This document shows positions 22,509 through 52,603 of a stretch of DNA of 64,000 nucleotides, in pieces. Both the position numbers and the translations under genes were made by a program. The notes beneath the pieces were generated by a model, which saw only the letters and a list, made by a program, of their open reading frames with translations, searched no databases and had not been told where the DNA came from. This DNA is from Candidatus Latescibacterota bacterium (GTDB lineage: Bacteria; Latescibacterota; UBA2968; UBA8231), in NCBI GenBank assembly GCA_965203355.1, contig OZ241889.1, positions 3,200,001 through 3,264,000 on the forward strand, given 5' to 3'. Positions within the stretch are counted from its first letter, which is position 1, and every line of letters begins with the position of its first letter.

Positions 22509-23936
22509 TCAAAACGTATCGAACGGCGTCTGTCGGCATTCGCGGATGAATTCGGTGGCTTCGCGGTCATAGGTGAGGAAGGGGTCGTCGAGGTTGAGAA
22601 ACTTATCGTCGCCCACGCAAATGGAATCCCAATCAATTTGATAGCGCGTCTTCTGGTCGGTCAGCGCCCTCATCACGCGCGAGCGCACACTGGCGCGAGT
22701 ATCAACCGGGGGGTGCGTGATGGCTTGATTGATCTGCTCGTCGCTGACAACTCGCTTGACCATCCCGCGCTCGTACAGGTCGAAGTAGAGGCTCCGCGCC
22801 GTGTTGAGATTGTGGTATTCCAAATCCAAACTTTGGATCCAAGTATCCTGCCAGTCCAGCCCCTCTTCCCGCATGAAGTACTCCAAGAGCCATTTCTTGG
22901 CCACCCAATCGACGCGATCGACCAAGCACTGCGGATCGTGCTCTAAGGCGTCGATGACAAAGCGCCACTCGTCCAACACCCAGTCGCCCTCTTCGTCCCG
23001 GCCGCGCAAATGGCGGTCGGCCAGGTCGAGATACGCGCGCTGGATCTCGGTCGCCGTAGTGTAGCGACCATCCTCTAGCTGCACTTCCCAGCGATAGGTC
23101 ATGTCGCGCGAAATCTCGCGGATGGCTTGCACCGGGTCGAGGAGCTTGATGTCGTCGCAGACCCCGCGCTCTTGCTCTTCCAAAAGCTGCAACAACAAGG
23201 CCGTGGTCCCCACCTTTAGCGCCGTGGCGTACTCCATCATATTCGAGTCGCCCACCAGCAGGTGCAAGCGGCGGTACAACCCCCAATCGGCCAGTGGCTC
23301 GTCGCGCGTGTTGATAATTGCGCGGCTAAACTGAATCCACTGGTAGATCTCCGTGACGATATGGTCGGCCCGTTGTGATAGCTGGAATCCAACGCTTTCG
23401 TCTTCGGCATTGCCGTACTCGAAAATATCCGTGTGGCAACCCACGCGGCCAGCACCGGCGAATATCTGGCGGGTGACAAAAAAAGGCAGCATGGTCGGCA
23501 GCAGCACTTGCGAAAACGGCACCTCTCGCCGCACGAGATAGTTTTCGTGGCAGCCAAACGTAGCCCCGGTGTAGTGGTCGATATTGTTCTTGAAAAAGGC
23601 CGCGCTATCAGCCAAGCCAAGCTGATCTAGCGCGCGCTGCACCAACCGATCACCGGCCCGATCCGTAGCCACCAAATCAAAAAGCCCGGTGCATTCTGGA
23701 GTGGCGTATTCGAGATGGCCCATGTCGATGTACATGCGCCCGCCATTAAAAAGAAAGCCGCCGTTGCCGGGCGGCTCATCTCGGCCTCGATAGTGCATAT
23801 CAATAAGGCCCAAGTCCTCGCGGTAGAACACCCAGTCCTTGACCTTTATCGACACAAAATCGGGACTCAAAAAGGGATCTGAAGCCGGCGGCAGACAACC
23901 GTACTCGGTTTCCAGCCCGTAGATGCGCCCTTCCAT
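22509..23936 (-). CDS. pafA: Pup/UBact-protein ligase PafA
   Basis: RIYGLETEYG, FNGGRMYID.GH.EYATPEC, KNNID, GCHENY, IINTRDEP.AD, RRLHLLVGDSN and LDLEYH motifs; last gene of the proteasome operon. Confidence 0.88.
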   Translation of the reverse strand: MEGRIYGLETEYGCLPPASDPFLSPDFVSIKVKDWVFYREDLGLIDMHYRGRDEPPGNGGFLFNGGRMYIDMGHLEYATPECTGLFDLVATDRAGDRLVQRALDQLGLADSAAFFKNNIDHYTGATFGCHENYLVRREVPFSQVLLPTMLPFFVTRQIFAGAGRVGCHTDIFEYGNAEDESVGFQLSQRADHIVTEIYQWIQFSRAIINTRDEPLADWGLYRRLHLLVGDSNMMEYATALKVGTTALLLQLLEEQERGVCDDIKLLDPVQAIREISRDMTYRWEVQLEDGRYTTATEIQRAYLDLADRHLRGRDEEGDWVLDEWRFVIDALEHDPQCLVDRVDWVAKKWLLEYFMREEGLDWQDTWIQSLDLEYHNLNTARSLYFDLYERGMVKRVVSDEQINQAITHPPVDTRASVRSRVMRALTDQKTRYQIDWDSICVGDDKFLNLDDPFLTYDREATEFIRECRQTPFDTF

Positions 23937-23937
23937 A

Positions 23938-24699
23938 CTAGACCTCGAAGTAGGAAGCGAGTGACGGGGCTAGTTGTTCCGCGGTGAGCAGGCCGAACTT
24001 CGACTTGGCGGCGCGGTCGCGGTCGAGCACGGCGGCCTCGACTGTCAGCCCTCGCAAACCGCCTTTTAGAAAATCGCGCACAGCCTCTACGCTGGGCACC
24101 TCTCCATCGCGGGCGTCGAGCGTCAACCGACCCAATCCCCACACCTCCAACGCCGCGCTCAAGGCTTGGTCGAGGGGCAGATCTGGGCTGATCTCTTGCA
24201 GTTGTGCCGTCATCGCCTGGGCACTCGCAGCGTTGCCGCTGATGGCCGCCGTGCGACCGCTCTGGGCAAAGGACCCATCGGCGTCAATGGTAAAAAAGGC
24301 GTCGCCGCGGCCGTCCGGGTCGAGCTCGGCCATCAGCACGCGGGCGACAAACGGCGAGCGAAACAACTCGTCGAAAGACGCCTTCATCAGCGGGCCAATG
24401 CCAAAGCTGACCAATCGCTGCAAGGTCACGTCGTTGGCCGACAAGTTGAATCCATCGAGATGGGCGATGTCGATAACGGCTTTGCGCAGCTTTTCGATGT
24501 CGGCCGGGTGCCCCACGGCCGCAAAGGCAATCTCGTCGTACACCTCAAAGAGCTTGCGCGGGCCCGGGGTAGCCGTCAGCAGCAACACCCCGTCGGCATA
24601 CGTCGTGCCCACCACCGGACTGCCGCCCGCAAGCTGATCTTCCACGTACTCGCGGCGGTTGTTGATGGCTTCAACCCAGCGATAAGGTTCTTCTAACAT
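23938..24699 (-). CDS. prcA: 20S proteasome alpha subunit
   Basis: EEPYRW...RREYV...GSPVVG, RKLFEVYD.IAFAAVG and EAAVLDR motifs; position between prcB and pafA. Confidence 0.85.
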   Translation of the reverse strand: MLEEPYRWVEAINNRREYVEDQLAGGSPVVGTTYADGVLLLTATPGPRKLFEVYDEIAFAAVGHPADIEKLRKAVIDIAHLDGFNLSANDVTLQRLVSFGIGPLMKASFDELFRSPFVARVLMAELDPDGRGDAFFTIDADGSFAQSGRTAAISGNAASAQAMTAQLQEISPDLPLDQALSAALEVWGLGRLTLDARDGEVPSVEAVRDFLKGGLRGLTVEAAVLDRDRAAKSKFGLLTAEQLAPSLASYFEV

Positions 24700-24703
24700 G
24701 CCT

Positions 24704-25462
24704 TCAAGCCCTTTGGTAGAGCGCGGCCAAATCCGCCTCGGGTACCGTGTGCAAGCCCGCGGCCGTCACCTGCACGACCTGGGGGAAAACGTGCGCAGCC
24801 TCGCGGAAGCCGCCCGTAGCCGTGTCGTATTCAGCGGCGGTCTCCAGCATCTTGAGCACCAGCTCGACCGCCTGTTCTCCAGCCATTTCTCGCAGCGGCT
24901 GCGGCCCCCAGCGGTTTTGGTAGTACAGCGCGCCGCGCACGATGTGGGCACCCGACCCAGTGGCGCAGAAATCCACGCACTCGAATTCGGCCCCCAAAAG
25001 GTCGTAAAAGAAAATTTTGCCCTCGGCGGCTGCGGGGTCAAAGGCCGCAAAAATCGGCACCACAGCGCCAATCCCCTGCATGGCCAGCGGCAAGTTCTGG
25101 CGCAATAGCCGCGACAACGTCCGCACCTTGCCGTCCAAGCTCAGCCCTTGGAGCTGGCTACGGCGGTAGTACTGCACCGACATTTCCAGCATCCGCGCAA
25201 TGTCCCACGCCACGGCCGGCGAGCCGGCAATGGCCATGACGGCTTCGTCGTCGATGATCAACACTTTGTCGGCGCGGTCGTACACCACCGAGTTGCCCAT
25301 GGTGGCGCGGCGATCGCCAGCCACCACCACCCCGTCGGCGCAGCGCACCGCTACAATCGTGGTGCCCTCGACCAGCGGCAAGGACGCTTCTGGAGTGGCA
25401 ACGGGGGCGACGGGCAAAGCCCCACGCTCCTTGAGCAAGTTGAGGAAGTCGCAGCTTTCCAT
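24704..25462 (-). CDS. prcB: 20S proteasome beta subunit (33-aa propeptide, Thr1 nucleophile)
   Basis: G|TTIVA processing site, GDRRAT (Asp17), Lys33, ATGSG and D.ATGG motifs. Confidence 0.92.
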   Translation of the reverse strand: MESCDFLNLLKERGALPVAPVATPEASLPLVEGTTIVAVRCADGVVVAGDRRATMGNSVVYDRADKVLIIDDEAVMAIAGSPAVAWDIARMLEMSVQYYRRSQLQGLSLDGKVRTLSRLLRQNLPLAMQGIGAVVPIFAAFDPAAAEGKIFFYDLLGAEFECVDFCATGSGAHIVRGALYYQNRWGPQPLREMAGEQAVELVLKMLETAAEYDTATGGFREAAHVFPQVVQVTAAGLHTVPEADLAALYQRA

Positions 25463-25468
25463 CGGCCG

Positions 25469-25660
25469 CTATTGGCCGGTGCGCTGGCGGTAGCGACGCG
25501 CCTGATTGGGATCTACGCGGCGCATCCGCTTGAGGATGTCGTCCGTGCTGGGGCGCTCGACCCGCGGCCGGCGCGGGCCGGTATCCGGGCCGTCGTCGTT
25601 GCCGTCGAGCGGCTTGGTCGGCCGGGGCGCACGCTCCCGGTAGTACATAAAATCGCTCAT
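25469..25660 (-). CDS. ubact: UBact prokaryotic ubiquitin-like modifier (Gln-terminated)
   Basis: 63-aa disordered protein ending ILKRMRRVDPNQARRYRQRTGQ, which fits the UBact R[T/S]G[E/Q] signature. It lies between dop and prcB and has a GGAGG RBS. Confidence 0.9.
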   Translation of the reverse strand: MSDFMYYRERAPRPTKPLDGNDDGPDTGPRRPRVERPSTDDILKRMRRVDPNQARRYRQRTGQ

Positions 25661-27201
25661 GGTGACACCTCCGGTTTTGGTTTTTTACCTAGTCTGGCGA
25701 GCAAATCCTCGACGCTCGCCGCCTCGTCTAAAGCCTCGTTATAATAAGTCGCGGTCTCTCGACTGACACAAGCCTTGAGGTCGATGACCTCGGTGCGGCC
25801 GTCGAGTTCCAGCTCAATGCTGTCCCAGTTGAGCGAGCGCACCGCAGCGGCAAATTTCTGCAACATCTTGCCGCGAAAGTAAGCGCGCGTGTCTTTAGGC
25901 GGATTGACCAACGCCCAGCCCACCTCCGCTTCAGAGACGACGCGCTCCACTTGGCCGGCGGCTTCAAGCACCGGGTACAGCCCTTCAGCCGGATCGATGT
26001 TGTGGTATTCGAGGTCTTGGCTTTGCAGCCACGCGAGGTCGGCCGGCCGTTCCCAATCGAGGCGCTCGGACTCGGCAAATGCATCTAACAGCCACTTTTT
26101 GGTCACCCAATCGACGCGGCCAATCAACGCTTGCGGATCGCGCGCGAGGGCATCCAACACGTCGCGCCAAGCCGCAAGAACCCAATCGGTCTCCTCGTCG
26201 CGGCCCTGAAAAACACCCGTCGCCGCAGCCATAATGGCCGTCTGTATCTCCAGCGCCGAACTCATCCTACCCTCGGCCAAAGCCACCGGCCACTGCCGGG
26301 ACTCGTCGCGGGAAATGGCCTTGAGCGCCCCAATGGGATCGGCCAAAGTACATGCGGGCAATGCACCAGCCTCTAGCAGATCCAGCACCAAGGAAGCCGT
26401 GCCAACTTTGAGCGCCGTAGCGTATTCGCACATGTTGGCGTCGCCGATGATCAGATGCAGGCGGCGGTGTTGCGCCGGATTGGCGTGCGGCTCATCGCGC
26501 GTGTTGACCAGCGGACGGCGGTGCATGGTATCAACGCTGGCGATGACCTCGAAAAAGTCCGCACGCTGGGTTAGCTGATACGTGGCGGCGCGCGCCCGGG
26601 CGTCCTGTTCGACGCCGACTTTGCCGGCCCCAGCAAAAATTTGCCGCGTCACCACAAAGGGCAGCAGCCCGTTGATCACCTGCTGGAAGGGCATATCGCG
26701 GCTGAGCAGGAAGTTCTCGTGGCAACCGTAGCTATGCCCCTCAAAGTCCGTGTTGTTTTTGTACAGACGCACCACGCCGCGACCGCGATCTTCGGTGCGT
26801 TGACGCGCACATTGGCGGAGAATCCGCTCCCCAGCGCGATCAACGGCGACCAAGTCGCGGAGGCTATAGCATTCTGGGGTGGAAAATTCTGGGTGGGTGT
26901 GATCGTTGTACAGGCGGGCCCCGTTGTGGACGATCAAGTCGCTTTTGAGGTCCGCTAGCTCAATCGGGCGCTGGCGATCCTGCTGCAAGTGGACGGTCTC
27001 GTCCTTGTCGTTGAGGAGTTCGGCGACCTCAAAGCCGCGCATGTCGAGCCGCGGGTTTTCGAGCGCGTAATTCCAGCGGGCAACAAAATCTTGGCGCACA
27101 TAGCAGCGAATCAACTCCATGGACTCTACCACCACGTCCATGGACTCGTCTTCGTCAACTTGGATGCCGTACTCGGTTTCTAAGCCGCAGAGCCGCTGCA
27201 T
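25657..27201 (-). CDS. dop: Deamidase/depupylase Dop
   Basis: GLETEYGI, W.Y..E.P..D.RGF Dop loop, NGARLYNDH.HPE.STPEC, SYGCHEN, TM..RPLVNTRDEPHA and RRLHLIIGDAN motifs. Confidence 0.9.
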   Translation of the reverse strand: MQRLCGLETEYGIQVDEDESMDVVVESMELIRCYVRQDFVARWNYALENPRLDMRGFEVAELLNDKDETVHLQQDRQRPIELADLKSDLIVHNGARLYNDHTHPEFSTPECYSLRDLVAVDRAGERILRQCARQRTEDRGRGVVRLYKNNTDFEGHSYGCHENFLLSRDMPFQQVINGLLPFVVTRQIFAGAGKVGVEQDARARAATYQLTQRADFFEVIASVDTMHRRPLVNTRDEPHANPAQHRRLHLIIGDANMCEYATALKVGTASLVLDLLEAGALPACTLADPIGALKAISRDESRQWPVALAEGRMSSALEIQTAIMAAATGVFQGRDEETDWVLAAWRDVLDALARDPQALIGRVDWVTKKWLLDAFAESERLDWERPADLAWLQSQDLEYHNIDPAEGLYPVLEAAGQVERVVSEAEVGWALVNPPKDTRAYFRGKMLQKFAAAVRSLNWDSIELELDGRTEVIDLKACVSRETATYYNEALDEAASVEDLLARLGKKPKPEVSP

Positions 27202-27209
27202 GAGCTAAG

Positions 27210-28904
27210 TCAGATCACCTGACCAACGCGCTTTTCCGGTGACTTTTCCGGCTGGGGCCTAACCGGGGTCACCCGCACGACGTTTTCCGGCTCGTAGTCG
27301 AGTAGTTTGAGCCAGTCCTCGACGCTATCCGAAGGGGGGAACACCTCGTTTTCGCGGTATTCAGCCCGCGTCGCCTGCCGCAAGTCCTCGGCGCAGATTC
27401 CGCCTGCGGGATTTTCTTCGGCAATGGCGCGCTTGATCGCCATTTCCTTGGCCCGCGATACGACCGAGGCGATGATGGCCCCGGAAATCAAATCGCCGCG
27501 ATAGAGCACTTCTTGGCGACCGCTGCGCAGCGACACCTCCAAGAAGCGCGCTTCTTCGCCTTTGGCGAACAACTCGTTCAAGCCCGCCTGTATCAGGGCC
27601 TCACGCGCAGCCGCCTCGCCCCCGTGTTGCTCCACCTCGGCGCGATCAATCGGCAACTCGGGCTTGAGGTAAATGCCCAAAATGTCGGCGGCCGCCTCGT
27701 AGTTGGGGCGCGCGACCTTGATCTTGCGGTCGATGCGGCCGGGCCGGAGCACCGCTGGATCGATCAAATCGTGGCGGTTGGAAGCCAAAATCAGCACCAC
27801 ATCGTGCAGCGACTCAATGCCATCCATCTCAGTGCAAAACATCGGCACGACCGTATTGGAGATGTTGTGGCTGCGCATCGAGCGCCGCGTGCCCAAGATC
27901 GACTCGGCTTCGTCGATAAAGACAAAAGGCAAATAACCTTCCTTGCGCTTTTGGCGCGCCTGAGCAAAGACTTCGCGCACCATGCGTTCGGTCTCGCCGA
28001 GCCACATGTTGAGAATCTCCGGCCCCTTGATGTGCATGAAATACTCTTCCAGTTCCAGTCCTTCGACCTCGCGCATGTGCTGCACCAAGTTGTACGCGGT
28101 GGCTTTGCCGATGAGGGTCTTGCCACAGCCCGGCGGGCCGTAGAGTAGAAAGCCTTTGGGCGTCGAATACTCGAAGCGCTCAAAGAGCTGGGGGTGCAAC
28201 GTGGGTAGTTCAATGGTGTCGCGGATGGCCTCAATCGCCTCTTGCTGACCGCCGATGCTCTCCCAAGGAGTGGGCGGCACGTCCTCGATGAAGTACTCCT
28301 TGCTCTCGGCGGACTGCAAAACTTCCAACGCAACCTTGTAGGCCGGGTCCATCCGCACCTCGTCGCCGATTTGCAAATTCGCGTCAGCCAATTCCGCGGC
28401 GCGTTCCACGACCACCTCTTGGGCGCCGTGCGCTTGGGCGATGCGCAAGCGGCCCTCGGGCAGCAGGTCGCCGATCTTGGCCACCGGCCCCGAGGGGCTG
28501 TGCCCCAAGTTGCCGACGACCGCATACGCTTCGTTCACCAGCACTCGGCAGCCAACCTGGAGCTGCGCCCCATCGACGCGCGGGTCAATGTTGGCATAGT
28601 ACTCGGCGCTGCCGACAAATACCGTGGCAACCCCCTCGCTCGGCATCCCGAGGAAAATGCCGACGCGGTTGGCTGGGGCCGTTACTTTTTCTAGCGCGGC
28701 TTCCATCTCCACGAGGGCACGCCGCGCCTCCTGAAAGGAAATCTCTCGCTCCATAAGCTGGCGCCGGAGGCGGTACAGCAGCGGGCGAGCCGGGTCGCGG
28801 TCTGGGGCGAGCGCAAGGAGCTTATCGACCAAGCGCAACGGCTCGGCTACCCGCTCCTCTGGCTCTTGGACCTTGTCGTATTCGTGCGATTCCCTGCGGT
28901 TCAT
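27210..28904 (-). CDS. arc: Proteasomal AAA+ ATPase ARC/Mpa
   Basis: N-terminal coiled coil, two OB domains, GPPGCGKT, IKGPEILN, FIDEAES, ASNR.DLIDPAVLRPGRIDRKI and SGAII motifs. Confidence 0.93.
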   Translation of the reverse strand: MNRRESHEYDKVQEPEERVAEPLRLVDKLLALAPDRDPARPLLYRLRRQLMEREISFQEARRALVEMEAALEKVTAPANRVGIFLGMPSEGVATVFVGSAEYYANIDPRVDGAQLQVGCRVLVNEAYAVVGNLGHSPSGPVAKIGDLLPEGRLRIAQAHGAQEVVVERAAELADANLQIGDEVRMDPAYKVALEVLQSAESKEYFIEDVPPTPWESIGGQQEAIEAIRDTIELPTLHPQLFERFEYSTPKGFLLYGPPGCGKTLIGKATAYNLVQHMREVEGLELEEYFMHIKGPEILNMWLGETERMVREVFAQARQKRKEGYLPFVFIDEAESILGTRRSMRSHNISNTVVPMFCTEMDGIESLHDVVLILASNRHDLIDPAVLRPGRIDRKIKVARPNYEAAADILGIYLKPELPIDRAEVEQHGGEAAAREALIQAGLNELFAKGEEARFLEVSLRSGRQEVLYRGDLISGAIIASVVSRAKEMAIKRAIAEENPAGGICAEDLRQATRAEYRENEVFPPSDSVEDWLKLLDYEPENVVRVTPVRPQPEKSPEKRVGQVI

Positions 28905-28916
28905 GGCATCCTCCCA

Positions 28917-29621
28917 CTAGTGGATCACGTCGCCGAGACGCCCGTAGCGCACTCGGCTGGGCAGGCGCCAGACAAAGCTGGCGACCACGGCCGGCAGCGA
29001 CGTCAAGCCCTGGTAGTAAGGCCCGCGCGTGTCGGGCTTCCACGACCAATAGATACTCATGGCCTTGCCCTTGATCAACCGCTTGGGCACCGCACGAAAG
29101 TAGCGGCTGTCCGAGCTATTGTCGCGGTTGTCGCCCATCATAAAGAAATGGCCCTCGGGCACAATGTACGGACCAAAATTGTCGCGTGGATTGCGCTCCG
29201 CTGGATAGTACCGGCGGTCGGCGTACTTGGCCAACGGCGGGTCTTGCACCGGCTCGCCATTGACGTGGAGCACTTTGTCGATGATGTGGACTTCCTGCCC
29301 TCCGACGGCGACACAGCGCTTAATCAAGTCGCGCTTCTCGTCCTGCGGAGAACGGAAAATCACGATGTCGCCCGGCTGTGGTTCCTTGAGCGCGGGCAGA
29401 CGGAAGAGGGAAATGCTCGTCAGGGGTACATCTACTGGAACGCCGTAGACAAACTTGTTGGCCAGCAGATAATCGCCCACCAAGAGCGTGTCTTCCATCG
29501 AGCTAGAAGGGATGTAAAAGGCCTGCACCACCCCGGTGCGAATGACCAAAAACAAACCCACGACAGTCAGTATTGAATACAGGTATTGGCCAAATTCGGA
29601 CTTTTGCTTGGCCTGCTTCAT
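28917..29621 (-). CDS. lepB: Signal peptidase I
   Basis: TM anchor, IPSSSMEDTL (Ser), IKR (Lys) and MMGDNRDNSSDSR. Confidence 0.95.
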   Translation of the reverse strand: MKQAKQKSEFGQYLYSILTVVGLFLVIRTGVVQAFYIPSSSMEDTLLVGDYLLANKFVYGVPVDVPLTSISLFRLPALKEPQPGDIVIFRSPQDEKRDLIKRCVAVGGQEVHIIDKVLHVNGEPVQDPPLAKYADRRYYPAERNPRDNFGPYIVPEGHFFMMGDNRDNSSDSRYFRAVPKRLIKGKAMSIYWSWKPDTRGPYYQGLTSLPAVVASFVWRLPSRVRYGRLGDVIH

Positions 29622-29634
29622 GTGCGGAATCTCC

Positions 29635-29717
29635 TCAGACCTGAATAATAAACGAAACGGCTTTGCCAGCCGCCATCTTCAGACCTGAGTATAATAAACG
29701 GCTTTCCTAACCGCCAT
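29635..29717. repeat. Imperfect tandem duplication (about 40 bp x2) upstream of lepB
   Basis: TCAGACCTGA-ATAATAAACG..GCTTT.C.A.CCGCCAT occurs at 29635-29676 and 29679-29717. Confidence 0.75.
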
Positions 29718-29776
29718 TTGCACTTAGCTTGGGCTACCTGCTTTCCCAATTTAGGAATAGGGCTATAAGCACCGTA

Positions 29777-32281
29777 TTAGCGCAACAATCGGGCCATCTT
29801 TTGCCTCTTGTGCTTCTCGGCATAGTCTAACGGCGTCCGACCTTTATCGTCCTTGGAATTGGGATTGGTCCCCTTGTCTAACAGCACTTTAGCGGTCTCG
29901 AGAGCGTTGTGTTGGGCAGCGTAGTGCAGCGGCGTCCGACCCTTCTCATCCTTGCTATTAAGATAGCCCTGGCCTCCCATGTCTATCAGCACTTTAGCGG
30001 TCTCGAGAGCGTTGTGTTGGGCCGCATAGTGCAGCGGCGTCATACCCTTCGCGTCCCTCGGACTGAGAGCGGCGCCCTTGCCTCTAAGCACTTTAGCGGT
30101 CTCTGAAGCGTTGTGTTGGGCCGCATAGTGTAGCGGCGTCCGCCCCTTCGCGTCCCTGGGATTGCTGCCTATCAGCACTTTGGCGATCTCGAAAGCGTTG
30201 TGTTCCGCCGCATAGTGCAGCAAGCCTTTGCCGTCTTCGTCGCTGGAAAGAGCCGACAAAGTCTCGAAAGCCTTGGCTATCGCAGGTTGTTCTTCATACA
30301 GCCGGCCGCGATCTTTGGCATCCTTGGCATGGTCCGGGTCCTCTTGTTTCAACACATGCTCTAAGGTGCTAAGTAACGAACCGCTCTGTGAAAGCTTCCC
30401 CCGCAGATCCTTGTGCGACTTGGCGATGTCTAACGGCGCCCTACCATTCTTGTCCGCGATGCCGATATAGCCCCCCTTGTCTATCAGCATTTTAGCGACC
30501 CTGAAAGCGCTGCACCATATCGCATAGTGTAGCGGCGTCTGACCGTCATTGTCCTTGACGTTGACAAAGGCCTCCCTGCCGATCAGCACGTTAGCGGTCT
30601 CACAAGCGTTGTGTTGGGCCGCATAGTGTAGCGGCGTCCGCCCCTCCGCGTCCCTGGGATTGCTGCCGCTCAGCACTTTAGCGATCTTGAAAGCGTTGTG
30701 TTCCGCCGCATAGTGCAGCAAACCTTTGCCGTCTTGGTCGTTGGAAAGAGCCGACAAAGTCTCGAAAGCATTGGCTACCGCCGCATTGCCCTCGTCTGTG
30801 GTATTGGGTTCCTCATACGGCCGATCGCTATCTTTGGCATCCTTTAGACCATTTAGTAAATCGGTAATACGTTTGAAGAAGTCCGTGTCCCCTTGCGACC
30901 CTGCCGCCGGCTTCTCGACCGGCTGACGATCCTGACTCGGGGGTTGGATATGCACGATCTGTCCTGCTGACGCCGGCTTCTCGACCGGCTGCCGCCACAT
31001 TTTTTGCAATTCCTCGACACTCTTCTGATCCGGTACCAACGACTCAAGAACCTGAGCAAGCGCGTTGAGCATCTTCTCTTTCACTCGAGCTAGCTCCTCC
31101 TTGATAGGAGCAAAATCTCGATTTTGGGCTTTCATGATCTCGGCGATCTTTTCTCCAAGCACATCCTGCACTTTCTCATCAACAACCCACTTATTCAAGT
31201 CAAGATCGAGCTTGTTCAGTTCCCTCATCAGCACCTGGGCACTCTGCTCGTCTTGGCCTATGGCTTCTTCATACATCGAAAAAATCGCTTCCATCTCCGA
31301 TTTCATCTTAGCCCCCAACGCAGCCGGCTTGAATGCTTGGTTCTGGTCGCGCAAAAATTCCTTTAGAGGCTGCCCTTCACACAGATACTCTTCGCGGTGA
31401 TTGGCACTATACGCGCAGATGCCCACCGGCTCCAGTTCGTCGTCCGCGAGAATATCCTTAACATCCGTCAGGATGGCTTGCCGATCACTAGGGGACTTCG
31501 TGTCCGCCTTGTTCAATACCACATACAACGGCAACCCGTTCAACTCCAAGTTTTGTAAAAAGTCCAAATCGTCACTCGGCATCGTACCCGTCGCGTCTAA
31601 GCCGATCATCCAAATCAAAGCATCCCGATCCTTGAGAGCGACCACCGCTGTATTCCGATCCTCAGTGGTGTCACCTCCAGCCGGATTATAGCCCGGCGTG
31701 TCGATCAGGTAGATGTGCTCAAACAAGCCCTCTTGCAAAGGTATTTCAACGGTGATAAAGGGTAGAATAGCTCGGAGATCAAGGTCGTCTTTAGCATCGT
31801 GATCGTGCGAAAATTCCTTGTAGAGAGTCGGCGCAATATCTGCGGTGGCTCCTGAGCGGGAAAAGCCCTTTATCGAGATCGACCGGCTAGACAGCACATA
31901 CGACGGGATCTTCGTGGTCGGTGTAAGGCCAACAGATAGCTGAAGATCCGACGACCGAACAAAGCTATTGACAAACGACGACTTACCGCTGCTAAAGCCG
32001 CCGCCAATGGCAACCGAGTGCTTGGTAAAGGTGTGCGGAAAGGCCACGATCTTTTCCAACCGTTTTAAAAAATCCTGCAAGCGTGTAACGGCCAACGCCT
32101 CGTTTGCCAACGACGACTCCTTGCCGGCAAACTCCATAAAGTCCTCCTCGAAAGTCCGCTTAAAATGCTCAAAAGCCTCATTCTCACTCGGCTTCTTGCT
32201 GAGCAGATTGGTAATCAAGGCGTACTTTTGCTGCAAAACCTCCAAGTCTGCTTTGGTGCGCTCGTACTCTGTGCGGCTCAT
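29777..32281 (-). CDS. Dynamin-like GTPase fused to C-terminal ankyrin repeats
   Basis: G1 GGFSSGKS, G2 PTT, G3 DTPG and G4 NKAD, then a helical stalk, then about 9 G.TPLHYAA..N-type ankyrin units in two duplicated blocks. Confidence 0.88.
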   Translation of the reverse strand: MSRTEYERTKADLEVLQQKYALITNLLSKKPSENEAFEHFKRTFEEDFMEFAGKESSLANEALAVTRLQDFLKRLEKIVAFPHTFTKHSVAIGGGFSSGKSSFVNSFVRSSDLQLSVGLTPTTKIPSYVLSSRSISIKGFSRSGATADIAPTLYKEFSHDHDAKDDLDLRAILPFITVEIPLQEGLFEHIYLIDTPGYNPAGGDTTEDRNTAVVALKDRDALIWMIGLDATGTMPSDDLDFLQNLELNGLPLYVVLNKADTKSPSDRQAILTDVKDILADDELEPVGICAYSANHREEYLCEGQPLKEFLRDQNQAFKPAALGAKMKSEMEAIFSMYEEAIGQDEQSAQVLMRELNKLDLDLNKWVVDEKVQDVLGEKIAEIMKAQNRDFAPIKEELARVKEKMLNALAQVLESLVPDQKSVEELQKMWRQPVEKPASAGQIVHIQPPSQDRQPVEKPAAGSQGDTDFFKRITDLLNGLKDAKDSDRPYEEPNTTDEGNAAVANAFETLSALSNDQDGKGLLHYAAEHNAFKIAKVLSGSNPRDAEGRTPLHYAAQHNACETANVLIGREAFVNVKDNDGQTPLHYAIWCSAFRVAKMLIDKGGYIGIADKNGRAPLDIAKSHKDLRGKLSQSGSLLSTLEHVLKQEDPDHAKDAKDRGRLYEEQPAIAKAFETLSALSSDEDGKGLLHYAAEHNAFEIAKVLIGSNPRDAKGRTPLHYAAQHNASETAKVLRGKGAALSPRDAKGMTPLHYAAQHNALETAKVLIDMGGQGYLNSKDEKGRTPLHYAAQHNALETAKVLLDKGTNPNSKDDKGRTPLDYAEKHKRQKMARLLR

Positions 32282-34524
32282 GGGTTCACCTCCATATTAT
32301 CCAGTTCGCCTTTAACAGCACTAATTCTCTTTAGCTCCATTTCCTTGTTTTTAACGGAGTTCTCAAGCGAGACCAGCTCTCTTTGGTATCGCTCTAGTAG
32401 CTGCTCTGCCAAGGAATATTTGCTCATTTCTTCTTCTAGAGATTTGACGTATTTATTTATCTCACCCCTCAATTCATCTACGAATTCACCGATATAGACA
32501 TTCGCCTCATTAATAAATTTTTCCGCGGCTTTTTCTTTCAACAAGCCTTGGGACCGTAGAGATTTCGGCAGCTCTTTTGAGTAACTAAACTCTGAGATAG
32601 TTATGGCGTTGACAGTGCGCCTGGCCACTCTCCTTATCATCGCGGCATCCAACTGATCTTCGTCAAAACTCTCTCGCAACTCTTTGGTAGCGGATTTGAG
32701 GACATCGCTACGCCACTCTTCCTTTTTTTGTTCTGCCAATTCACCGAGAGAATCCGTCAAGTTTTGGTGGAATTCCGACAGCCCACTTAAAAAGGTACCT
32801 GTGCGGATGGTTTTATATTCCACCTGTTTGTATTCAGGGCTTCCCCAGAACTTCCACCAAGGCTTCTCTATTTCCACCCGTCCTTTACCTATACCTGTCG
32901 CCTTATCAAGAGCCTCCTCCAAAGCTTCTTTGCTGAGTTTACGCAAGGCTTCCTTTTTCAACTCGCTTATAACCTTCTGAATAGACTCTTGATATCCCAA
33001 GCTGACGTCCTCAGAAGCATTGCTGAGATTAGTTTTCAAAGCCTCTCTCTTCTTCTTAATGGTCTGAACATCTTCGCGTTCAATGTTATTTTGCATCTCC
33101 TCGACATGGTCGGACAAACCAGTGCGTAGAGCGCGAAGAGAACGGTGTTTGCCCTGGACGTAATTGCCAATCCGATTCTTGAGAATCTCCTCTTTCTTCG
33201 CCCGCACCTGTTCGACGATCGCCTGAATCGTCGACATATTGGCCAGCTTGTCCAAATTGCTCTTCGCCGATTGCTCATTCGAGAAATAATCTGGATACTC
33301 CCTCTGCAAACTGCTCCACACATGAACCATCCCTTCGTCCCAGCCCTCCTGCTGTCCAAAGCGTTGCTTCATACTTTCGCAAAGCCCCGCCGAGTGGATA
33401 ACCCTGCTCTGACCTTCAATCAACTGGTCATAGGCATCTTTCACCTCGGGATTACTTTCTTTGAGATCCTCGATAACCTTTTTCAAGTGGTGCCCAAGTT
33501 CTTGGGTGATAGCGTTCAACACGCGATCTAGCTGTCCGTCGTTTTCTACCTTCATATTGCTAAACATTTGGGTATCTACTTGGGCCGCCACGACATATAG
33601 CTCTCGGACGCCCTCCTTGCTGGTAATTCGGTCCATCAGTTCCATATCTTCGTGAGAAATAAACTGACCCGCCGGACTGACGACTAGCACCACGTCGCAT
33701 TTGCTTAAATACTCGCGGGTGCGCGCCTCACGCGACTGAATCGGATCGTTGATCCCGGGGGTATCTACGATCTGTATGTCCTTTAGGTTGTCTTGCGGCA
33801 GCAGGATGTTGACGCTCTTGGTAAAAGGCATGTATGGACCATCGGCACCCACGTACTCCGCCAGTTGGCTTTGCAAATCCGCCAGACCGCCCGACAAATT
33901 CAGCACCTTACTTTTGCCCAAACTCCCAATGGACGTATTGCTGTTGTCGATTTTCTCGCATTGCTCGTAAGACGACGCGAGAACGGGATTTTTATCGCGT
34001 ATCTCCCTTGTTGCTCGACGCTGCGCCTTTTCCTTGTCCTCAGTTGTGTGGCCTGCTACTTTTCTCACCGCCTTCCCAAGTCTGCTCTCTCCTTTCTCCA
34101 AAAGCTCATCTAAAAGATCACGCACGCGCTCCTGCACTTGCTTTTCGTAATCCCGAGCCTGAGCCTTCATATCCTCAATATCCGCAGGAGTAAAAAACTC
34201 CACTTCCGCCTGTACCGAATCCCCGTGCGAAAGGGTCGTCAAAGCAGCCGTCATTGGGGTCGCCGCCTTGGGCAAAATGCTCTGTCCCTCGAAGACCAAG
34301 GCGTTCAAAAGCGAGGACTTCCCCGACTTGACCCGCCCGACAATACCAATCCTCAGCAACCGTTCATCATCTTCAATCTCGGCCAATTCGGCTTGCAGTT
34401 TCTTGGCTGAGGGGATGCTGTGCGTTTGGTCCAAACTTGTTGCTTCATCGCCGAGAAGATCGCTGTACTTATCAACGACCTGATCCAGCTTTTCGCGGTA
34501 TGCTACAATGCCAATATGTTCCAT
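32278..34524 (-). CDS. Dynamin-like GTPase (LeoBC/DLP-like, unsplit)
   Basis: GRVKSGKS, PMTA, DTPGINDP..SRE..T and a long coiled-coil stalk with a KPWWKFWG aromatic paddle; AAGGAG RBS. Confidence 0.85.
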   Translation of the reverse strand: MEHIGIVAYREKLDQVVDKYSDLLGDEATSLDQTHSIPSAKKLQAELAEIEDDERLLRIGIVGRVKSGKSSLLNALVFEGQSILPKAATPMTAALTTLSHGDSVQAEVEFFTPADIEDMKAQARDYEKQVQERVRDLLDELLEKGESRLGKAVRKVAGHTTEDKEKAQRRATREIRDKNPVLASSYEQCEKIDNSNTSIGSLGKSKVLNLSGGLADLQSQLAEYVGADGPYMPFTKSVNILLPQDNLKDIQIVDTPGINDPIQSREARTREYLSKCDVVLVVSPAGQFISHEDMELMDRITSKEGVRELYVVAAQVDTQMFSNMKVENDGQLDRVLNAITQELGHHLKKVIEDLKESNPEVKDAYDQLIEGQSRVIHSAGLCESMKQRFGQQEGWDEGMVHVWSSLQREYPDYFSNEQSAKSNLDKLANMSTIQAIVEQVRAKKEEILKNRIGNYVQGKHRSLRALRTGLSDHVEEMQNNIEREDVQTIKKKREALKTNLSNASEDVSLGYQESIQKVISELKKEALRKLSKEALEEALDKATGIGKGRVEIEKPWWKFWGSPEYKQVEYKTIRTGTFLSGLSEFHQNLTDSLGELAEQKKEEWRSDVLKSATKELRESFDEDQLDAAMIRRVARRTVNAITISEFSYSKELPKSLRSQGLLKEKAAEKFINEANVYIGEFVDELRGEINKYVKSLEEEMSKYSLAEQLLERYQRELVSLENSVKNKEMELKRISAVKGELDNMEVNP

Positions 34525-34598
34525 TTTACTTCTCCTTTTAGATAACGTCTGGTACTCTCTTGAGTGGGAGATGCTTCGCTGCGTTCAGCATCGCTGGT

Positions 34599-36296
34599 TT
34601 AGGTGAAAATCGCTTGCTGGGCCTGTGAGCGAATGGTATCGCGAATGGTGGTAAGCTCGGCGATGGTCTGCTCCGTATTGCTCTTTTCGTCTTGCTTGGC
34701 TTGCTCGGCCGCGGCGATTTGGCTCCGCCTCTCTTGGATATGCGAATCCAATGCCTTGGCCTGCTCGTCGATCAAAAGGCTCACCTGCTCCTCGAAATGC
34801 TTGGGCAGTTCGCTGCGAATTTTGCTCTTGACATCCGGGATTACCGTTCCAATCAACTGGTCTCGGATTTGCTGCTCTTGCTTCCTCTTCTGAAAGCGGC
34901 CAATAATTTCGGGCAAGAAGAACAAAGCGAGCCCCAAGATGGGTTGTAAGAGGGTAATGGTCAGCGTGGTGACCACAGCGCGGTACATCCACTTTGTTTG
35001 TGAACTGGTGCCTCTCCCGAGGATTTTGTCCACCTCAGGCAACCCTCCAACTTTCGCCGCCAACTCTTCAGAGTTTGCGCCCGAGTACTGGCCCAAAACC
35101 GAGTCCATATTGAGACGGCCGACCAAATCCTCCTCAATTTGCCGGTGTAGCCGATCCATCGCCTCCTCCGTATGTCTCACAAGCGATGTGCGGACGATTT
35201 CCGACACTTCACGGTTTAGCGCACTTTGGGCGTTTTCTCCGCTGGACATAGCCAGCTTCGTTAGGTCTTCTACGGCCGCTTCCAAATCCGCGCCGACCCC
35301 TTCCACAATGGTGTTGACCCGGCTGGTGGAATACCGCGTGCGAATGTCTCGAATCATCTCTTCCTTTTGGCTCTGCAATTTCTGTAGATCGGCGGCAAGT
35401 TCGTCGATGGCCTCTTGGTTTTCCCGTGAGTCCCGTTGCAGTGCGCTGATACACGTGTTCAGGCTGCCATCGAGTTCCAAAGAGTGCGACTCCAAGCGGG
35501 AACCCCACCGCTCGGCGAACAGCTTTTCTGGATCGATGGCCTTGAGCATCTTGGCCAAGGTCTCCCCGCCATCCATGCCCAAAGTCTCAACAGGCGCGGA
35601 AAGCTCAAAGTCATCCTTTAGCCGATCCTGGATCTTGGTGGCAATCTCTTGGACCTCGGTGGGCGCACGCAGATTCGCCTTGCTTAGGAACACGGAGAAC
35701 TCCTTGCCGACCTGGTGGATTTCGGATAGCTGCCGCTCGATGGAGCGCGTGAGAGTCCCCTCCTCCACGCTGGTCAAGCCCACGTAGTAGCTTCCTTTAT
35801 TGAGGTAGGTCAAAATGGCGCGGTGATGTAAATCCCACGGCGCGTCAAAACCCGGCATATCTACCAGCACCAAGGGGAGAATCCTGTGCAGGGACTCGCT
35901 ATTGAGAAAGACCCGCACATATTGGTATTGGCGGGCGCGCGCTTCGTCGTTGTGAATCGCATCCAGCTCCTCAAGGGCGAAGCGGTCCGCCTCCCCATCC
36001 TCCTTGACCGCCTCGATATACTCGCTTGCCGAATGCCGCAGCTCGGTCGCCAACGCAGTCTTCGGGTTAATGCCCACTGGCAGGCACTCAGAGCCTAAAA
36101 AGGAATTGATCAAGGTACTCTTGCCCGCACTAAAAGCCCCGACCACCGGCACGATCAGCTCGGCCTCGGCCAAGTTTTGCTTTAATGGCTCTATCGACTG
36201 GATGTTCTTTTCTATCGCCTCCATAGAGCGGGCTTTGCTCAATTCGGCTTTGACTCCATCGAGATAAGCGAGAAACTGTTGTTGCGTCTGTAGCAT
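34599..36296 (-). CDS. Dynamin-like GTPase (LeoA-like)
   Basis: VVGAFSAGKS, P.TA.ATEL, LVDMPGFD and LSK motifs, with a hydrophobic hairpin ..LGLALFFLPEII near the C-terminus; GGGAGG RBS. Confidence 0.88.
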   Translation of the reverse strand: MLQTQQQFLAYLDGVKAELSKARSMEAIEKNIQSIEPLKQNLAEAELIVPVVGAFSAGKSTLINSFLGSECLPVGINPKTALATELRHSASEYIEAVKEDGEADRFALEELDAIHNDEARARQYQYVRVFLNSESLHRILPLVLVDMPGFDAPWDLHHRAILTYLNKGSYYVGLTSVEEGTLTRSIERQLSEIHQVGKEFSVFLSKANLRAPTEVQEIATKIQDRLKDDFELSAPVETLGMDGGETLAKMLKAIDPEKLFAERWGSRLESHSLELDGSLNTCISALQRDSRENQEAIDELAADLQKLQSQKEEMIRDIRTRYSTSRVNTIVEGVGADLEAAVEDLTKLAMSSGENAQSALNREVSEIVRTSLVRHTEEAMDRLHRQIEEDLVGRLNMDSVLGQYSGANSEELAAKVGGLPEVDKILGRGTSSQTKWMYRAVVTTLTITLLQPILGLALFFLPEIIGRFQKRKQEQQIRDQLIGTVIPDVKSKIRSELPKHFEEQVSLLIDEQAKALDSHIQERRSQIAAAEQAKQDEKSNTEQTIAELTTIRDTIRSQAQQAIFT

Positions 36297-36628
36297 GTTG
36301 ATACCTCCCTAGGTGGTGATGTGCAGACCCGGACATGGCGCACAAAGCAACCAAACGACGACTTTGCCGGATGGAGCACACGGGTACGCTACGGTGCCGC
36401 GAAAAATTCGGTTTTCTTGGGGTTAAGTTTTGCAGCGATCCCGCATCTTCTCTTAAACGAGGTTGACGTTGCAGCCCCCTCGGGGGCCGGGCAGTGTCTA
36501 ACTCACGCAAGTTTTGATGCGGGAAGTTCCTACTTATTCGCAGAGCGGTTAGGAGCTACCTAGCCACTTTGCATAGGCTATTGTATTCAGCAGGCCACCC
36601 GACATGGGGGGCTTGCATGAGTTAGACG
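36297..36628 (-). ncRNA. Candidate structured 5' leader or ncRNA of the dynamin operon
   Basis: A 16-bp inverted repeat (36496-36511/36612-36627) has one mismatch, which becomes G-U on the minus strand. A perfect 9-bp inverted repeat (36439-36447/36516-36524) crosses it, and there are at least 4 internal hairpins. Confidence 0.5.
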
Positions 36629-36634
36629 GGCTTA

Positions 36635-36663
36635 AAGATATATAAGCCATTGCAGGAATACAA
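36635..36663 (-). promoter_or_regulatory. Predicted sigma70-type promoter for the dynamin operon
   Basis: Minus strand TTGTAT (36663-36658), a 17-nt spacer, then TATCTT (36640-36635). The +1 would fall at about 36628-36627. Confidence 0.5.
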
Positions 36664-36784
36664 TAGGAAGACAAGAAGATTTTAGTTCGGAGAGGCACTT
36701 CGCAAGAGCTTCAAAACGCACCGCTAGCTAAATCATTATAGATGATATATGGCGGGCTGGGACTGTGGCCCAAGTCTAAAGCCA

Positions 36785-42634: not shown

Positions 42635-44122
42635 ATGTCCCGCATTATCGTCGCCGAGTGCAAGCAAGAAATCTCCTCTTTCAACCCGGTCGTCGGCACG
42701 TACGACAACTTCTCCGTTCACCGCGGCCCGGACCTGCTCGCCTATCACCAAGGCCGCGAGACCGAGCTGTGCGGTGCTTTGCAGGTTTTCGCCGACAGCC
42801 ACTTTGACGTCGTACCGACCTATGGGGCTGTCGCCCCCTCGGCCGGGCCTTTAGACCAACCGGACTTTGACCGCCTGGCCGCCGAGTTGCTCGACGCGGT
42901 CACACCACACCTAGCCGACGCCGACGGCATGTACCTCTGTCTCCACGGCGCTATGGGCTGCACCCAAGAGTTGGACCCGGAGGGCTACTTGCTGCAAGCG
43001 ATTCGCCACCGCGCCGGCCCCAACTTCCCCATCGCGATCTCGCAAGACCTGCACGGCATCCTCACCCGCCGCATGTTGGAGCATTCAAACGGCCTCGCCA
43101 TGTACCACACCTATCCGCACGTTGATCTGGCCGACACCGGTCGCCGCGCCGCGTATTTGCTCCTCCAAGTCCTCGCTGGCGCGCAGCCCGTGGTGGCCCG
43201 CGTGCGGGTGCCCGCGCTCGTGCGCGGCAACGAGCTTATCACCGCCTCCGGCGTGTACGGCGAATCCATTCGCTATTGTCAAGCCTTAGAAGAGCAGCCC
43301 GACATTCTCGCGGCCGGTGTGATGATCGGCAATCCGTTCACCGACGTGCCCGAGTTGTGCTCCCAAGCCATCGTCGTCGCCGATGCCGACCCGGACCTCG
43401 CCCGCAGCGAGGCCCTGCACCTCGCCGCTGAATTCTGGGAGCACCGCGCCCGCATGCAGCCCGAGCTCGCGTCGGTCGAAGACGCCGTAGCCCAAGCCGC
43501 CCAATACAGCGGCCCGGTGCTTTTCACCGACGCGGCCGACGCCCCTTCTTCGGGTGCGACCGGCGACAGCAACGTGCTGCTCCAAGCCTTGCACACCAGT
43601 GGCTATGCCGGCCAAGTGCTCGCGCCGCTGGTGGATGCACCCGCCGCGTACATGGCCCACGACGCTGGACTCGGCGCGCACATTCGCGTGGTCTTGGGTG
43701 GCTCGCTCGACTCGCGCTTTGCTCCGCTCGAACTCGCGGTCGAAGTCTCCCAGCTCGGCGACGGCGAATATCTCGACGAATCTTGGAACACGCCCCAACG
43801 CGCCGGGCCTACGGCCGTGCTAAAAAGCGACAACCTCACCATCGTCTGCGTCAGCCGCTCCGTGCCTTTTATCGACCGCTCGGTCTTTATCGCCCACGAC
43901 ATAAACCCCAAGGACTACGACCTCATCGTCATCAAGTCGCCGCACTGCCAGTCGCACTTTTTTGACGAATGGGCCGAGAAAAACTTCAACGTCGATGCCC
44001 TTGGCTCAACCAGCGCGAACTTACCCACCCTCGGGCACCGCGTCTGCCAGCGGCCCATGTACCCCCTCGAACTCGACACCCCTTTTACCCCAGTCGCCGA
44101 AATGTTCGGCACGGGAGCCTAA
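42635..44122 (+). CDS. M81 family metallopeptidase (MlrC-like)
   Basis: QE..SFNP, LHGAM, DPEG, DLHG, Y.TYPHVD, D..D.P..G..GD and IVIKS motifs. Confidence 0.88.
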   Translation: MSRIIVAECKQEISSFNPVVGTYDNFSVHRGPDLLAYHQGRETELCGALQVFADSHFDVVPTYGAVAPSAGPLDQPDFDRLAAELLDAVTPHLADADGMYLCLHGAMGCTQELDPEGYLLQAIRHRAGPNFPIAISQDLHGILTRRMLEHSNGLAMYHTYPHVDLADTGRRAAYLLLQVLAGAQPVVARVRVPALVRGNELITASGVYGESIRYCQALEEQPDILAAGVMIGNPFTDVPELCSQAIVVADADPDLARSEALHLAAEFWEHRARMQPELASVEDAVAQAAQYSGPVLFTDAADAPSSGATGDSNVLLQALHTSGYAGQVLAPLVDAPAAYMAHDAGLGAHIRVVLGGSLDSRFAPLELAVEVSQLGDGEYLDESWNTPQRAGPTAVLKSDNLTIVCVSRSVPFIDRSVFIAHDINPKDYDLIVIKSPHCQSHFFDEWAEKNFNVDALGSTSANLPTLGHRVCQRPMYPLELDTPFTPVAEMFGTGA

Positions 44123-44127
44123 GCTTT

Positions 44128-44409
44128 ATGCCTGCCATCAAACAATCCGTCTGCTTCAATCCCTTCACCGGCAGCGGCCTCAGCCCGCGGGAACTCGTCG
44201 CGGCGGCCGCCCGCATCGGCTATCAATCCGTCGAGATGGCGGCCCGAGACCACTGGCCGCTGATCCAAGATCACGGCCTCGCCATCGCCATTGTCGCCGG
44301 CCACGCTTTGCGGACCGAGCTTTTGCAGGAGAAGGAGCGCGGCTTTTCGGGGGACGTTGGAATCGCCGCGGCACCCCTATCATCTATACGGCGGAATCGC
44401 TGTCGTTAG
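44128..44409 (+). pseudogene. Truncated hydroxypyruvate-isomerase-like gene (about 60 genuine codons)
   Basis: MPAIKQSVCF...AAARIGYQSVEM....WPLIQDHGL is a Hyi-type TIM-barrel N-terminus. It then runs out of frame into RES-domain DNA. Confidence 0.6.
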
Positions 44410-44747
44410 CCATGCTCGAAATCCTCGTCAACCTCGACTCTCCTGCAACCCTTGATCGATATATGAGCATTCCAGTCGAATTTGACGACAGCCTGTGCAA
44501 GGTGCTGTCTTTGGAAGCCTTGCCCGACAATTGGTCGCCCGATCCGGTGCCATCGAACGTTCAAGAGATAGGCTCTAGCTGGGCCTCTGCTCGTCAATCA
44601 GCCGTGCTCGTCGTTCCTAGTGCCGTCGTTCCACAGGAACACAATTTCCTCTTAAATCCACAGCATCCCGATTTCGCACAAATACGCATCGGCCCCTCCA
44701 CCGAATTCGATTTTGATCCGAGGCTAATTAAGGTACATTGCGGCTAA
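44304..44747 (+). pseudogene. RES-domain toxin (NAD+ phosphorylase family) lacking its N-terminus and antitoxin
   Basis: AF.GEGA...GGRWN..G...IYTAESLSLA.LE, VPSAVVP.E.N.LLNP.HPDF and FDPRL motifs. There is no start codon or RBS, and the first beta strand is missing. Confidence 0.75.
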
Positions 44748-52596: not shown

Positions 52597-52603
52597 AGAA
52601 ATT

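Follow-up and report, generated by a model that had tools for sequence, protein, structure and literature searches.

To our knowledge, bacterial dynamins have so far been known as singles or pairs; Eleos is the one validated defensive pair, its mechanism not being known, and the 2:2 tethering complex of DLP1 and DLP2 is known solely for Campylobacter jejuni. In this work, we describe a trio. A stretch of 64,000 nucleotides from a Candidatus Latescibacterota bacterium (contig OZ241889.1, positions 3,200,001 to 3,264,000 of the forward strand), hereafter the window, bears three consecutive genes for dynamin-like proteins (DLPs), termed A, B and C, the last of which ends in ankyrin (ANK) repeats. 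According to the accessible text of Millman et al. (2022, 'Dynamins'), an Eleos system comprises two genes, LeoBC and LeoA, or three if the first is split, the P-loops of both proteins are required for defence, and bacterial dynamins may be paralleled with Mx. Just as in Eleos, the window genes encode adjacent dynamin-like GTPases of an accessory nature, whose relatives in other phyla lie in defence-type neighbourhoods, and each of A, B and C keeps an intact P-loop, the element on which both Eleos proteins depend. In contrast to Eleos, with its two GTPases, the trio has three full ones, including a mini-DLP with an exchangeable add-on.

Genes A (34599-36296, 565 amino acids, aa), B (32278-34524, 748 aa) and C (29777-32281, 834 aa) are all intact open reading frames (ORFs) on the minus strand, in the order A, B, C. 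A consists of an N-terminal G domain and a helical stalk with a hydrophobic hairpin toward the C-terminus; B has a helical insert in its G domain and a very long stalk with a beta-hairpin tip; and C is built of a mini-dynamin core, a linker and ankyrin arrays. The Pfam model Dynamin_N (PF00350) matched each protein above its gathering cut-off of 27 bits (A 68.8, B 78.2, C 32.3 bits). In the translations, the G1 and G3 motifs read GAFSAGKS and DMPG in A, GRVKSGKS and DTPG in B, and GGFSSGKS and DTPG in C, where the G4 motif NKAD is readable as well; none of the three family alignments shows any variation at the P-loop Lys, the G2 Thr or the G3 DxxG. The stop of B and the start of C overlap in the tetranucleotide ATGA (32278-32281, minus strand), as read directly in ...CCATGAGC..., with GGAGGTG 8 nt upstream, while the 74-nt spacer between A and B (34525-34598, minus strand) carries AAGGAGAAG before the B start codon. 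The GC content of the operon is 52.3% vs. 60.9% and 63.4% in the flanks. An earlier note on this DNA, made from the letters alone, had claimed three tandem dynamin-like GTPases of exactly these lengths with recognisable GTPase motifs, an ATGA overlap of the second and third genes and a lower-GC island, and on all these points our data agree with it.

The A-B-C set is a real operon and a conserved, horizontally exchanged module of three different dynamin-like GTPases. A scan of species-representative genomes found 53 related loci (numbered from L001 on), and in 40 of them A, B and C are collinear on one strand; among the remaining 13, three hold B and C only (two cut by a contig end), six C only (mostly on short contigs), and four are otherwise arranged. 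These counts are based on tblastn, longest-ORF gene calling having misread A in L005 and the signal peptidase in L001. The 4-nt overlap of B and C is also found in Pseudomonas (L012), and by coordinates 4-nt overlaps recur at both gene junctions in further loci; together with the collinearity, this upholds the view of the earlier note that the three components are one unit. The closest loci belong to Latescibacterota metagenome-assembled genomes (MAGs), and the others to Pseudomonas, Burkholderia, Thiothrix, Treponema and other spirochaetes, Fusobacteriaceae, Bacteroidales, Leclercia, Moraxella and others. The module is carried by two P. aeruginosa megaplasmids, beside integrases, and by a Calditerrivibrio plasmid, beside IS200/TnpB; in the plasmid copies all three genes are annotated just as 'dynamin family protein'. 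Its distribution is sporadic: of 301 Pseudomonas genomes, 6 have a B homologue (~2%), as do 7 of 75 genomes from the order of the relatives, and the DNA of the Leclercia B gene had no match in complete genomes of E. coli. A tblastn search of phage genomes with B gave no match and IMG/VR only two distant relatives, while the clusters retrieved from the ESM Atlas were all generic, labelled 'dynamin family protein'. The reading of the module as a phage-borne element was rejected.

A, B and C belong to three distinct families joined through their G domains, the G domain of C being nearest to that of A (hhalign 99.5%, E 9e-23). The C core (30992-32281, minus strand; residues 1-430) comprises three N-terminal helices, the G domain (88-313) and four C-terminal helices in a single bundle, and its AlphaFold2 (AF2) model reached a pLDDT of 90.7 and a pTM of 0.86. 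With this model, Foldseek found mini-mitofusin (5yew, E 5e-12), IniA, BDLP, Cj-DLP, EHD and dynamin GTPase-BSE; for mini-mitofusin, IniA and BDLP, E-values range from 5e-12 to 1e-10 and TM-scores are modest (0.34-0.44), partly because of bundle orientation; the top matches of the B and C models are all DLPs. Like mini-mitofusin (the MFN1/2 G domain with HD1), IniA and BDLP, the C core places its N- and C-terminal helices in one bundle beside the G domain; unlike them, C has no second bundle (trunk), paddle or transmembrane segment, and bears ANK or other modules instead. Since the core is a G domain with one bundle, without trunk and paddle, C is a natural 'mini-DLP'. The linker that follows (30737-30991, minus strand; residues 431-515) is rich in Pro, Gln and Glu and is predicted to be disordered where modelled (pLDDT < 50 at residues 440-460, the model end). 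In a set of 1.84 billion representatives, a limit of E<=1e-30 gives the C family 349 clusters, and a query with residues 1-460 gave 507 significant relatives among 8000 candidates scored. Two tandem C genes stand behind A and B in L031, L036, L039 and L041 (e.g. 479 and 478 aa in L036).

B is a full-length DLP in its AF2 model (pLDDT 84.2), with a 99-residue stalk helix and a beta-hairpin tip. Its top fold match over nearly the full length was SynDLP (7zw6, E 1e-14, TMq 0.44), followed by BDLP, Cj-DLP1 and IniA; SynDLP stands alone, however, whereas B is part of a three-gene module, and sequence identity between the two is 14%. The beta-hairpin at the stalk tip (32803-32898, minus strand; residues 543-574) exposes an aromatic loop, KPWWKFWGSP, as a candidate peripheral membrane contact. 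The loop has low pLDDT at 557-561 and varies in length, being hydrophobic or aromatic with Gly in most of the 25 homologues, and it may bind the membrane. Neither B nor C has a hydrophobic segment in Kyte-Doolittle plots. The sole Kyte-Doolittle window above 1.5 across the three proteins falls in A, on a hydrophobic helix-Pro-helix hairpin (34896-34991, minus strand; residues ~436-467) that is a candidate membrane anchor. The hairpin recurs in the Pseudomonas A protein, and the hydrophobic stretch is aligned in all 25 rows of the A family, with P452, L461 and P462 invariant or nearly so. When compared to the PDB, the A family profile matched BDLP best (1.5e-16) and C. jejuni DLP2 next (5.9e-15), and the B family profile matched DLP1 best (1.5e-22). 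Thus, the heterotypic neighbouring DLP genes of C. jejuni (5owv, 5oxf) have their likeness in the operon, B resembling DLP1, also by fold (Foldseek), and A resembling DLP2; in contrast to that pair, the window operon adds a third GTPase, and the sequence likeness is limited to the G domain. Gene A is duplicated in tandem before B and C in a syntenic relative (L001 4061-7640; 575 and 591 aa), and on the P. aeruginosa plasmid pPAG5 (L054 7276-8987) it is annotated as a 'dynamin family protein' plus a 'hypothetical protein', apparently split, with B and C intact.

The C-terminal part of C consists of nine ankyrin repeats, seven found by the motif GxTPL[HD]xA and two, GKGLLHYA, by eye, in good accord with the number of about nine given by the earlier note. 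They form two arrays on the minus strand: array 1 (30392-30736; residues 516-630) has about 4 repeats, recognised by Pfam Ank, motif positions and the DNA repeat families D1 and D2, and array 2 (29780-30232; residues 684-834) has 5 and is, with its leader, a duplicate of array 1. The arrays represent an internal DNA duplication of 86% identity with a 498-nt spacing. Pfam Ank_2 matched C in 7 stretches (E 4.6e-85), and in the PDB the repeats matched ankyrins and DARPins down to 1e-72. All nine are nearly uniform (GRTPLHYAAQHNA.ETAKVL). The position of the array in the window C is the place of an exchangeable module in relatives. Among the 120 nearest C homologues listed, out of the 507 significant relatives, 61 have ANK (by a hidden Markov model from the window's own repeats) and 20 have HHH_3, a helix-hairpin-helix (HhH) domain (hand count), which is also found in L005-L007; one homologue (P0010) combines ANK with FGE-sulfatase. 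Further add-ons in other loci are MORN repeats, a beta-solenoid and N-terminal coiled coils, with a long coiled coil in the Pseudomonas C. On the tree of C cores, the ANK label changes at least three times, and the window C, itself a long branch, falls into a starred clade of five rows (2 HHH, 2 ANK and 1 other); even on identical cores the number of repeats differs (11 vs. 15, 11 vs. 13). Spirochaete loci have separate downstream genes instead, coding for a double zinc ribbon with leucine-rich repeats (LRR), a double zinc ribbon with Sel1+ANK, or tetratricopeptide repeat (TPR) proteins. Since such modules are either fused or separately encoded across loci, the trio is repeatedly accompanied by a module of the repeat or DNA-binding type. 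In L030 (6125-10516), L033 (9597-12359) and L036 (12836-14442), series of small paralogous genes, the double zinc ribbon coming first, lie downstream of C; in several of them the ribbon is followed by LRR, by Sel1+ANK or by no recognisable domain, and the genes look like a diversified family tied to the trio. In the open-access literature, with supplementary tables such as Table S5 of the Millman preprint (listing dynamin systems) outside the scope, we found neither a three-dynamin operon nor a dynamin-ankyrin fusion described; the suggestion in the earlier note that the fusion is undescribed thus stands for that literature, whereas, with 61 of the 120 listed homologues bearing it, the fusion is not rare.

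The locus is an accessory, exchangeable hotspot at which alleles are replaced and lost. Two Latescibacterota genomes (L001, L004) have the operon at the same site, bounded by a Gfo/Idh/MocA oxidoreductase gene on one side and by signal peptidase I plus the Pup-proteasome cluster on the other. While the flank proteins of the window are 83-95% identical to those of L001 and L004, the identity is 61% for A, 53% for B and 45-47% for C. In the nearest relative, with flanks 91-97% identical, the operon is missing at the site; a degraded C remnant is kept, since two pieces of the window, 29000-29832 and 31245-31330, have counterparts of 88-89% DNA identity lying next to each other there, and the gap is occupied by two dockerin-LRR lipoprotein genes (L058 8178-11573). 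In seven Latescibacterota loci (L001-L007) the GC content of the operon is 5-9 points below that of the flanks, and in Thiothrix it is 33% vs. 51%. Another C-type protein of the window genome, P0080, is encoded on the same 4.17-Mb contig; in its core it shares 81-86% identity with the C proteins from operons of the L002/L003 type. Upstream of A, where AGGGAGG precedes the start codon, lies a 488-nt spacer of lower GC (36297-36784, minus strand) that has no counterpart in relatives: the gap is only 36 nt in L001 and L004, and homology to the nearest relative picks up again only at 36795, beyond the spacer. The spacer contains no Rfam match, no noteworthy ORF and, on the minus strand, no sigma-70-like site; a scan of the whole window at gathering thresholds gave no Rfam match, and the promoter and terminator scan gave nothing exceeding shuffled expectation.

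The flanks of 20 of the 40 collinear loci, chosen by us at about one per genus or operon type, were surveyed for known domains and defence genes (148 proteins). WYL models matched 7 proteins with PADLOC, and Pfam WYL and WCX matched 6 each. One protein cluster, with seven members from six loci, lies upstream of A, directly adjacent in four, and two of its members were confirmed as WYL+WCX; the accessible part of PMC13622015 reports WYL repressors as controllers of diverse defence systems. The Pseudomonas flank contains a complete type III restriction-modification (RM) system (endonuclease 1.9e-199, methyltransferase 1.6e-194), the Luteibacter flank SspH/SspG, and the Undibacterium flank a NERD+UvrD helicase; other PADLOC matches were GajB, PDC-S40 and PDC-M13A/B. 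In this survey, which had no background control, known defence genes are thus co-localised with the module in Pseudomonas, Luteibacter, Undibacterium and other loci, and not around the window copy; for Eleos, proximity to known defence systems is reported in 60% of cases.

Directly downstream of the operon (22509-28904, minus strand) lies a complete Pup-proteasome-type cluster with two PafA/Dop-like ligases, PrcA, PrcB and an Mpa/ARC AAA ATPase, 84-97% conserved in the nearest relatives (Latescibacterota). Other low-GC patches in the window hold RM genes, a RES toxin and LRR genes: an 839-aa Eco57I/N6_Mtase-type restriction-modification enzyme (12602-15121, plus strand, low GC), a C-5 cytosine methylase beside an unassigned 342-aa ORF that is possibly its endonuclease (51568-53908, minus strand, low GC), a RES-domain toxin gene (43962-44747, plus strand), and a dockerin+LRR lipoprotein-like gene (660 aa) followed by a second LRR gene (44913-47519, plus strand). 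At its N-terminus, the window LRR protein looks by eye like the products of both LRR genes that take the place of the operon in L058. A 1101-aa secreted protein (18680-21985, minus strand) has, by eye, a metalloprotease-like HExxH, parallel beta-helix-like repeats and a C-terminal tail resembling a type IX secretion system sorting domain.

Our preferred explanation, which we hold at about even odds, is that the trio defends against phages or other invaders by remodelling membranes, as a three-GTPase system that has not been catalogued. Defence is the function we favour because of the sporadic distribution, plasmid carriage, replacement and loss at the hotspot, the company of defence genes in other phyla, the remote kinship to Eleos and the RM and RES-toxin genes in other low-GC patches of the window. 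Under this reading, the three proteins would most likely work jointly at the inner membrane and provide an accessory defence, Eleos-like in its logic and outside the Eleos family. A would be membrane-anchored through its hydrophobic hairpin; B, a long-stalk DLP, would be the partner of A, as DLP1 is with DLP2; and the add-on of C, two ankyrin arrays on a flexible linker, would dock the machine onto a protein target or cue. Through GTP-dependent contacts between G domains, it would in turn switch how A and B assemble and how they remodel the membrane, be it by sealing, tethering or exclusion. We infer the formation of a complex by A, B and C, its action on membranes, the defence function and a target of the ankyrin repeats from the comparisons given here.

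The earlier note had cited LeoABC-type (Eleos) operons as the anti-phage precedent, but membership of the operon in that type is not supported: a canonical, already catalogued Eleos (LeoA/LeoBC or LeoABC) is very improbable. A run of PADLOC, proposed in the earlier note, recognised no Eleos system and gave partial matches for A alone (LeoA, 42.4 bits, 1.2e-11, residues 6-81; LeoBC, 37.5 bits, 3.9e-10, residues 266-543) and none for B or C; the NCBIfam LeoA model (DLP_LeoA_gen) scored 23.9 bits vs. a cut-off of 325; LeoA was not among the PDB matches of the A and B family profiles at E<=0.01; and three complete GTPases are present, whereas Eleos has two genes, three when the first is split. What speaks for a relation is that weak matches extend family-wide, the LeoA model matching 24 of 25 A proteins and the LeoBC model 17 of 25 A and 16 of 25 B proteins (best E ~1e-14 to 1e-15), which suggests a remote kinship of the A and B families to Eleos. 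Canonical Eleos was rejected on the three GTPases, the partial Leo matches and the missing LeoA in the PDB profile matches. That the GTPase-ankyrin junction might be an assembly chimera, as the earlier note had allowed, has a negligible probability. Short-read contigs do break inside the ANK repeats (~29900-30720), which is read as repeat collapse and not as absence; against a chimera, the same fusion is present in 60 other protein clusters, including the complete-chromosome MAGs L001-L004, and single contigs from two public runs cover 30692-36400 without a difference, i.e. residues 1 to ~530 of C, so that the GTPase, the first ANK repeat and the linker between them are all included. Both spanning runs come from one study, possibly the window's own source, and a run from a second study has matching pieces. 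The same fusion in the other clusters and the contigs that span the junction led us to reject the chimera.

More serious, yet still rather unlikely in our estimate, is that the trio serves membrane maintenance or repair under envelope stress (pore formers, osmotic damage) in the style of Bacillus subtilis DynA, the C tail merely localising it. By their motifs all three proteins count as DLPs, the models of B and C show DLP folds, A carries the candidate membrane hairpin, and DynA, a bacterial DLP linked to membrane protection and phage resistance, takes part in membrane surveillance and protects from phages through delayed lysis, as stated in the accessible parts of PMC8844932 and PMC12998192; the housekeeping neighbours in the window genome, signal peptidase I included, and a second operon conserved like an ordinary gene would also suit repair. 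However, DynA is a single two-headed housekeeping protein, whereas A, B and C are separate, accessory and sporadic, and repair predicts neither the loss of the operon in the nearest relative nor the 2% prevalence in Pseudomonas, nor the plasmid and integrase contexts, the RM, Ssp and WYL neighbours and the exchange of HhH, ANK and MORN. It is improbable that the ankyrin-tailed GTPase, in relatives rich in eukaryote-like repeat proteins, is a host-interaction trait acting on or within a eukaryotic host cell, at a variable site that gathers symbiosis genes. ANK fusions do concentrate in one clade, and those of its members that carry a name are MAGs of Latescibacterota or Gemmatimonadota; ANK, LRR and TPR proteins are reported for sponge-associated Latescibacterota MAGs (accessible part of PMC12993501); and dockerin-LRR lipoproteins stand at the site in the nearest relative, as LRR genes do at 44913-47519 of the window. 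No N-terminal signal peptide is visible by eye in A, B or C, however, and B and C have no hydrophobic segment; plasmids as well as free-living Pseudomonas, Burkholderia and Thiothrix have the core operon without ANK, close relatives of the window C bear the DNA-binding-type HhH in place of ANK, and the word 'dynamin' is absent from the accessible part of PMC12993501. Equally improbable is a CrfC-like, DNA- or chromosome-linked system that tethers DNA (forks, incoming or plasmid) to the membrane, with the add-on of C picking the cargo. It would accommodate the HHH_3 tails on 20 of the 120 listed homologues and in L005-L007, the long coiled coil of the Pseudomonas C and the weak NCBIfam match of A to CrfC, but this match (E 1.2e-7) lies at 30.5 bits, far below the cut-off of 1146, and covers residues 17-90 only, the window C has ANK and no DNA-binding module, and if the DNA were foreign the explanation would overlap with defence.

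Several points weigh against the defence reading itself. Neither PADLOC 2.0 nor NCBIfam recognises a system in the operon; the flank survey lacked a background control and included no Latescibacterota locus among its 20, while the immediate neighbours of the window operon and of its syntenic relatives are housekeeping genes, namely signal peptidase I, the Pup-proteasome cluster and oxidoreductases. The second operon in the genome, judged from its protein P0080 and the loci of relatives, is ordinarily conserved, so that the hyper-divergence is specific to the window site and not to the family, and the ANK repeats, being near-uniform, are unlike a diversified sensor surface. Exported LRR proteins at the site of the nearest relative mean that the site may collect host-interaction genes, and a role linked to DNA or the chromosome would be equally compatible with the variants that bear HhH or coiled coils.

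Within the defence reading, we tentatively propose, as a possibility that we hold for somewhat doubtful, a phylum-spanning immune system in which a mini-dynamin with interchangeable recognition modules would sense a phage or foreign-DNA cue and trigger a membrane-anchored DLP pair. With the same caution, the recognition modules would be ankyrin, HhH, MORN, beta-solenoid or coiled coil, or the separate zinc-ribbon LRR/ANK/TPR partners. By analogy only, such an arrangement recalls the animal immune dynamins Mx and GBP and the STAND/NLR-like sensors, where a GTPase or NTPase engine is combined with variable repeat modules, and a sensing role of the C repeats is our conjecture. If true, the trio would be a bacterial counterpart of the Mx/GBP and NLR sensor-plus-engine logic, placed at hotspots with allele exchange and loss.

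The conserved trio would offer a handle on how dynamin machines get aimed at their targets, because its third member is a pared-down GTPase whose plug-in tail can be exchanged or removed, and the natural tail variants (ANK, HhH, MORN) predict different targets. If not defensive, the trio is still an unstudied three-component membrane machine on plasmids and at genomic hotspots. If defensive, it would add a widespread system that was not called here by PADLOC 2.0 and would extend the parallel with animal immune GTPases.

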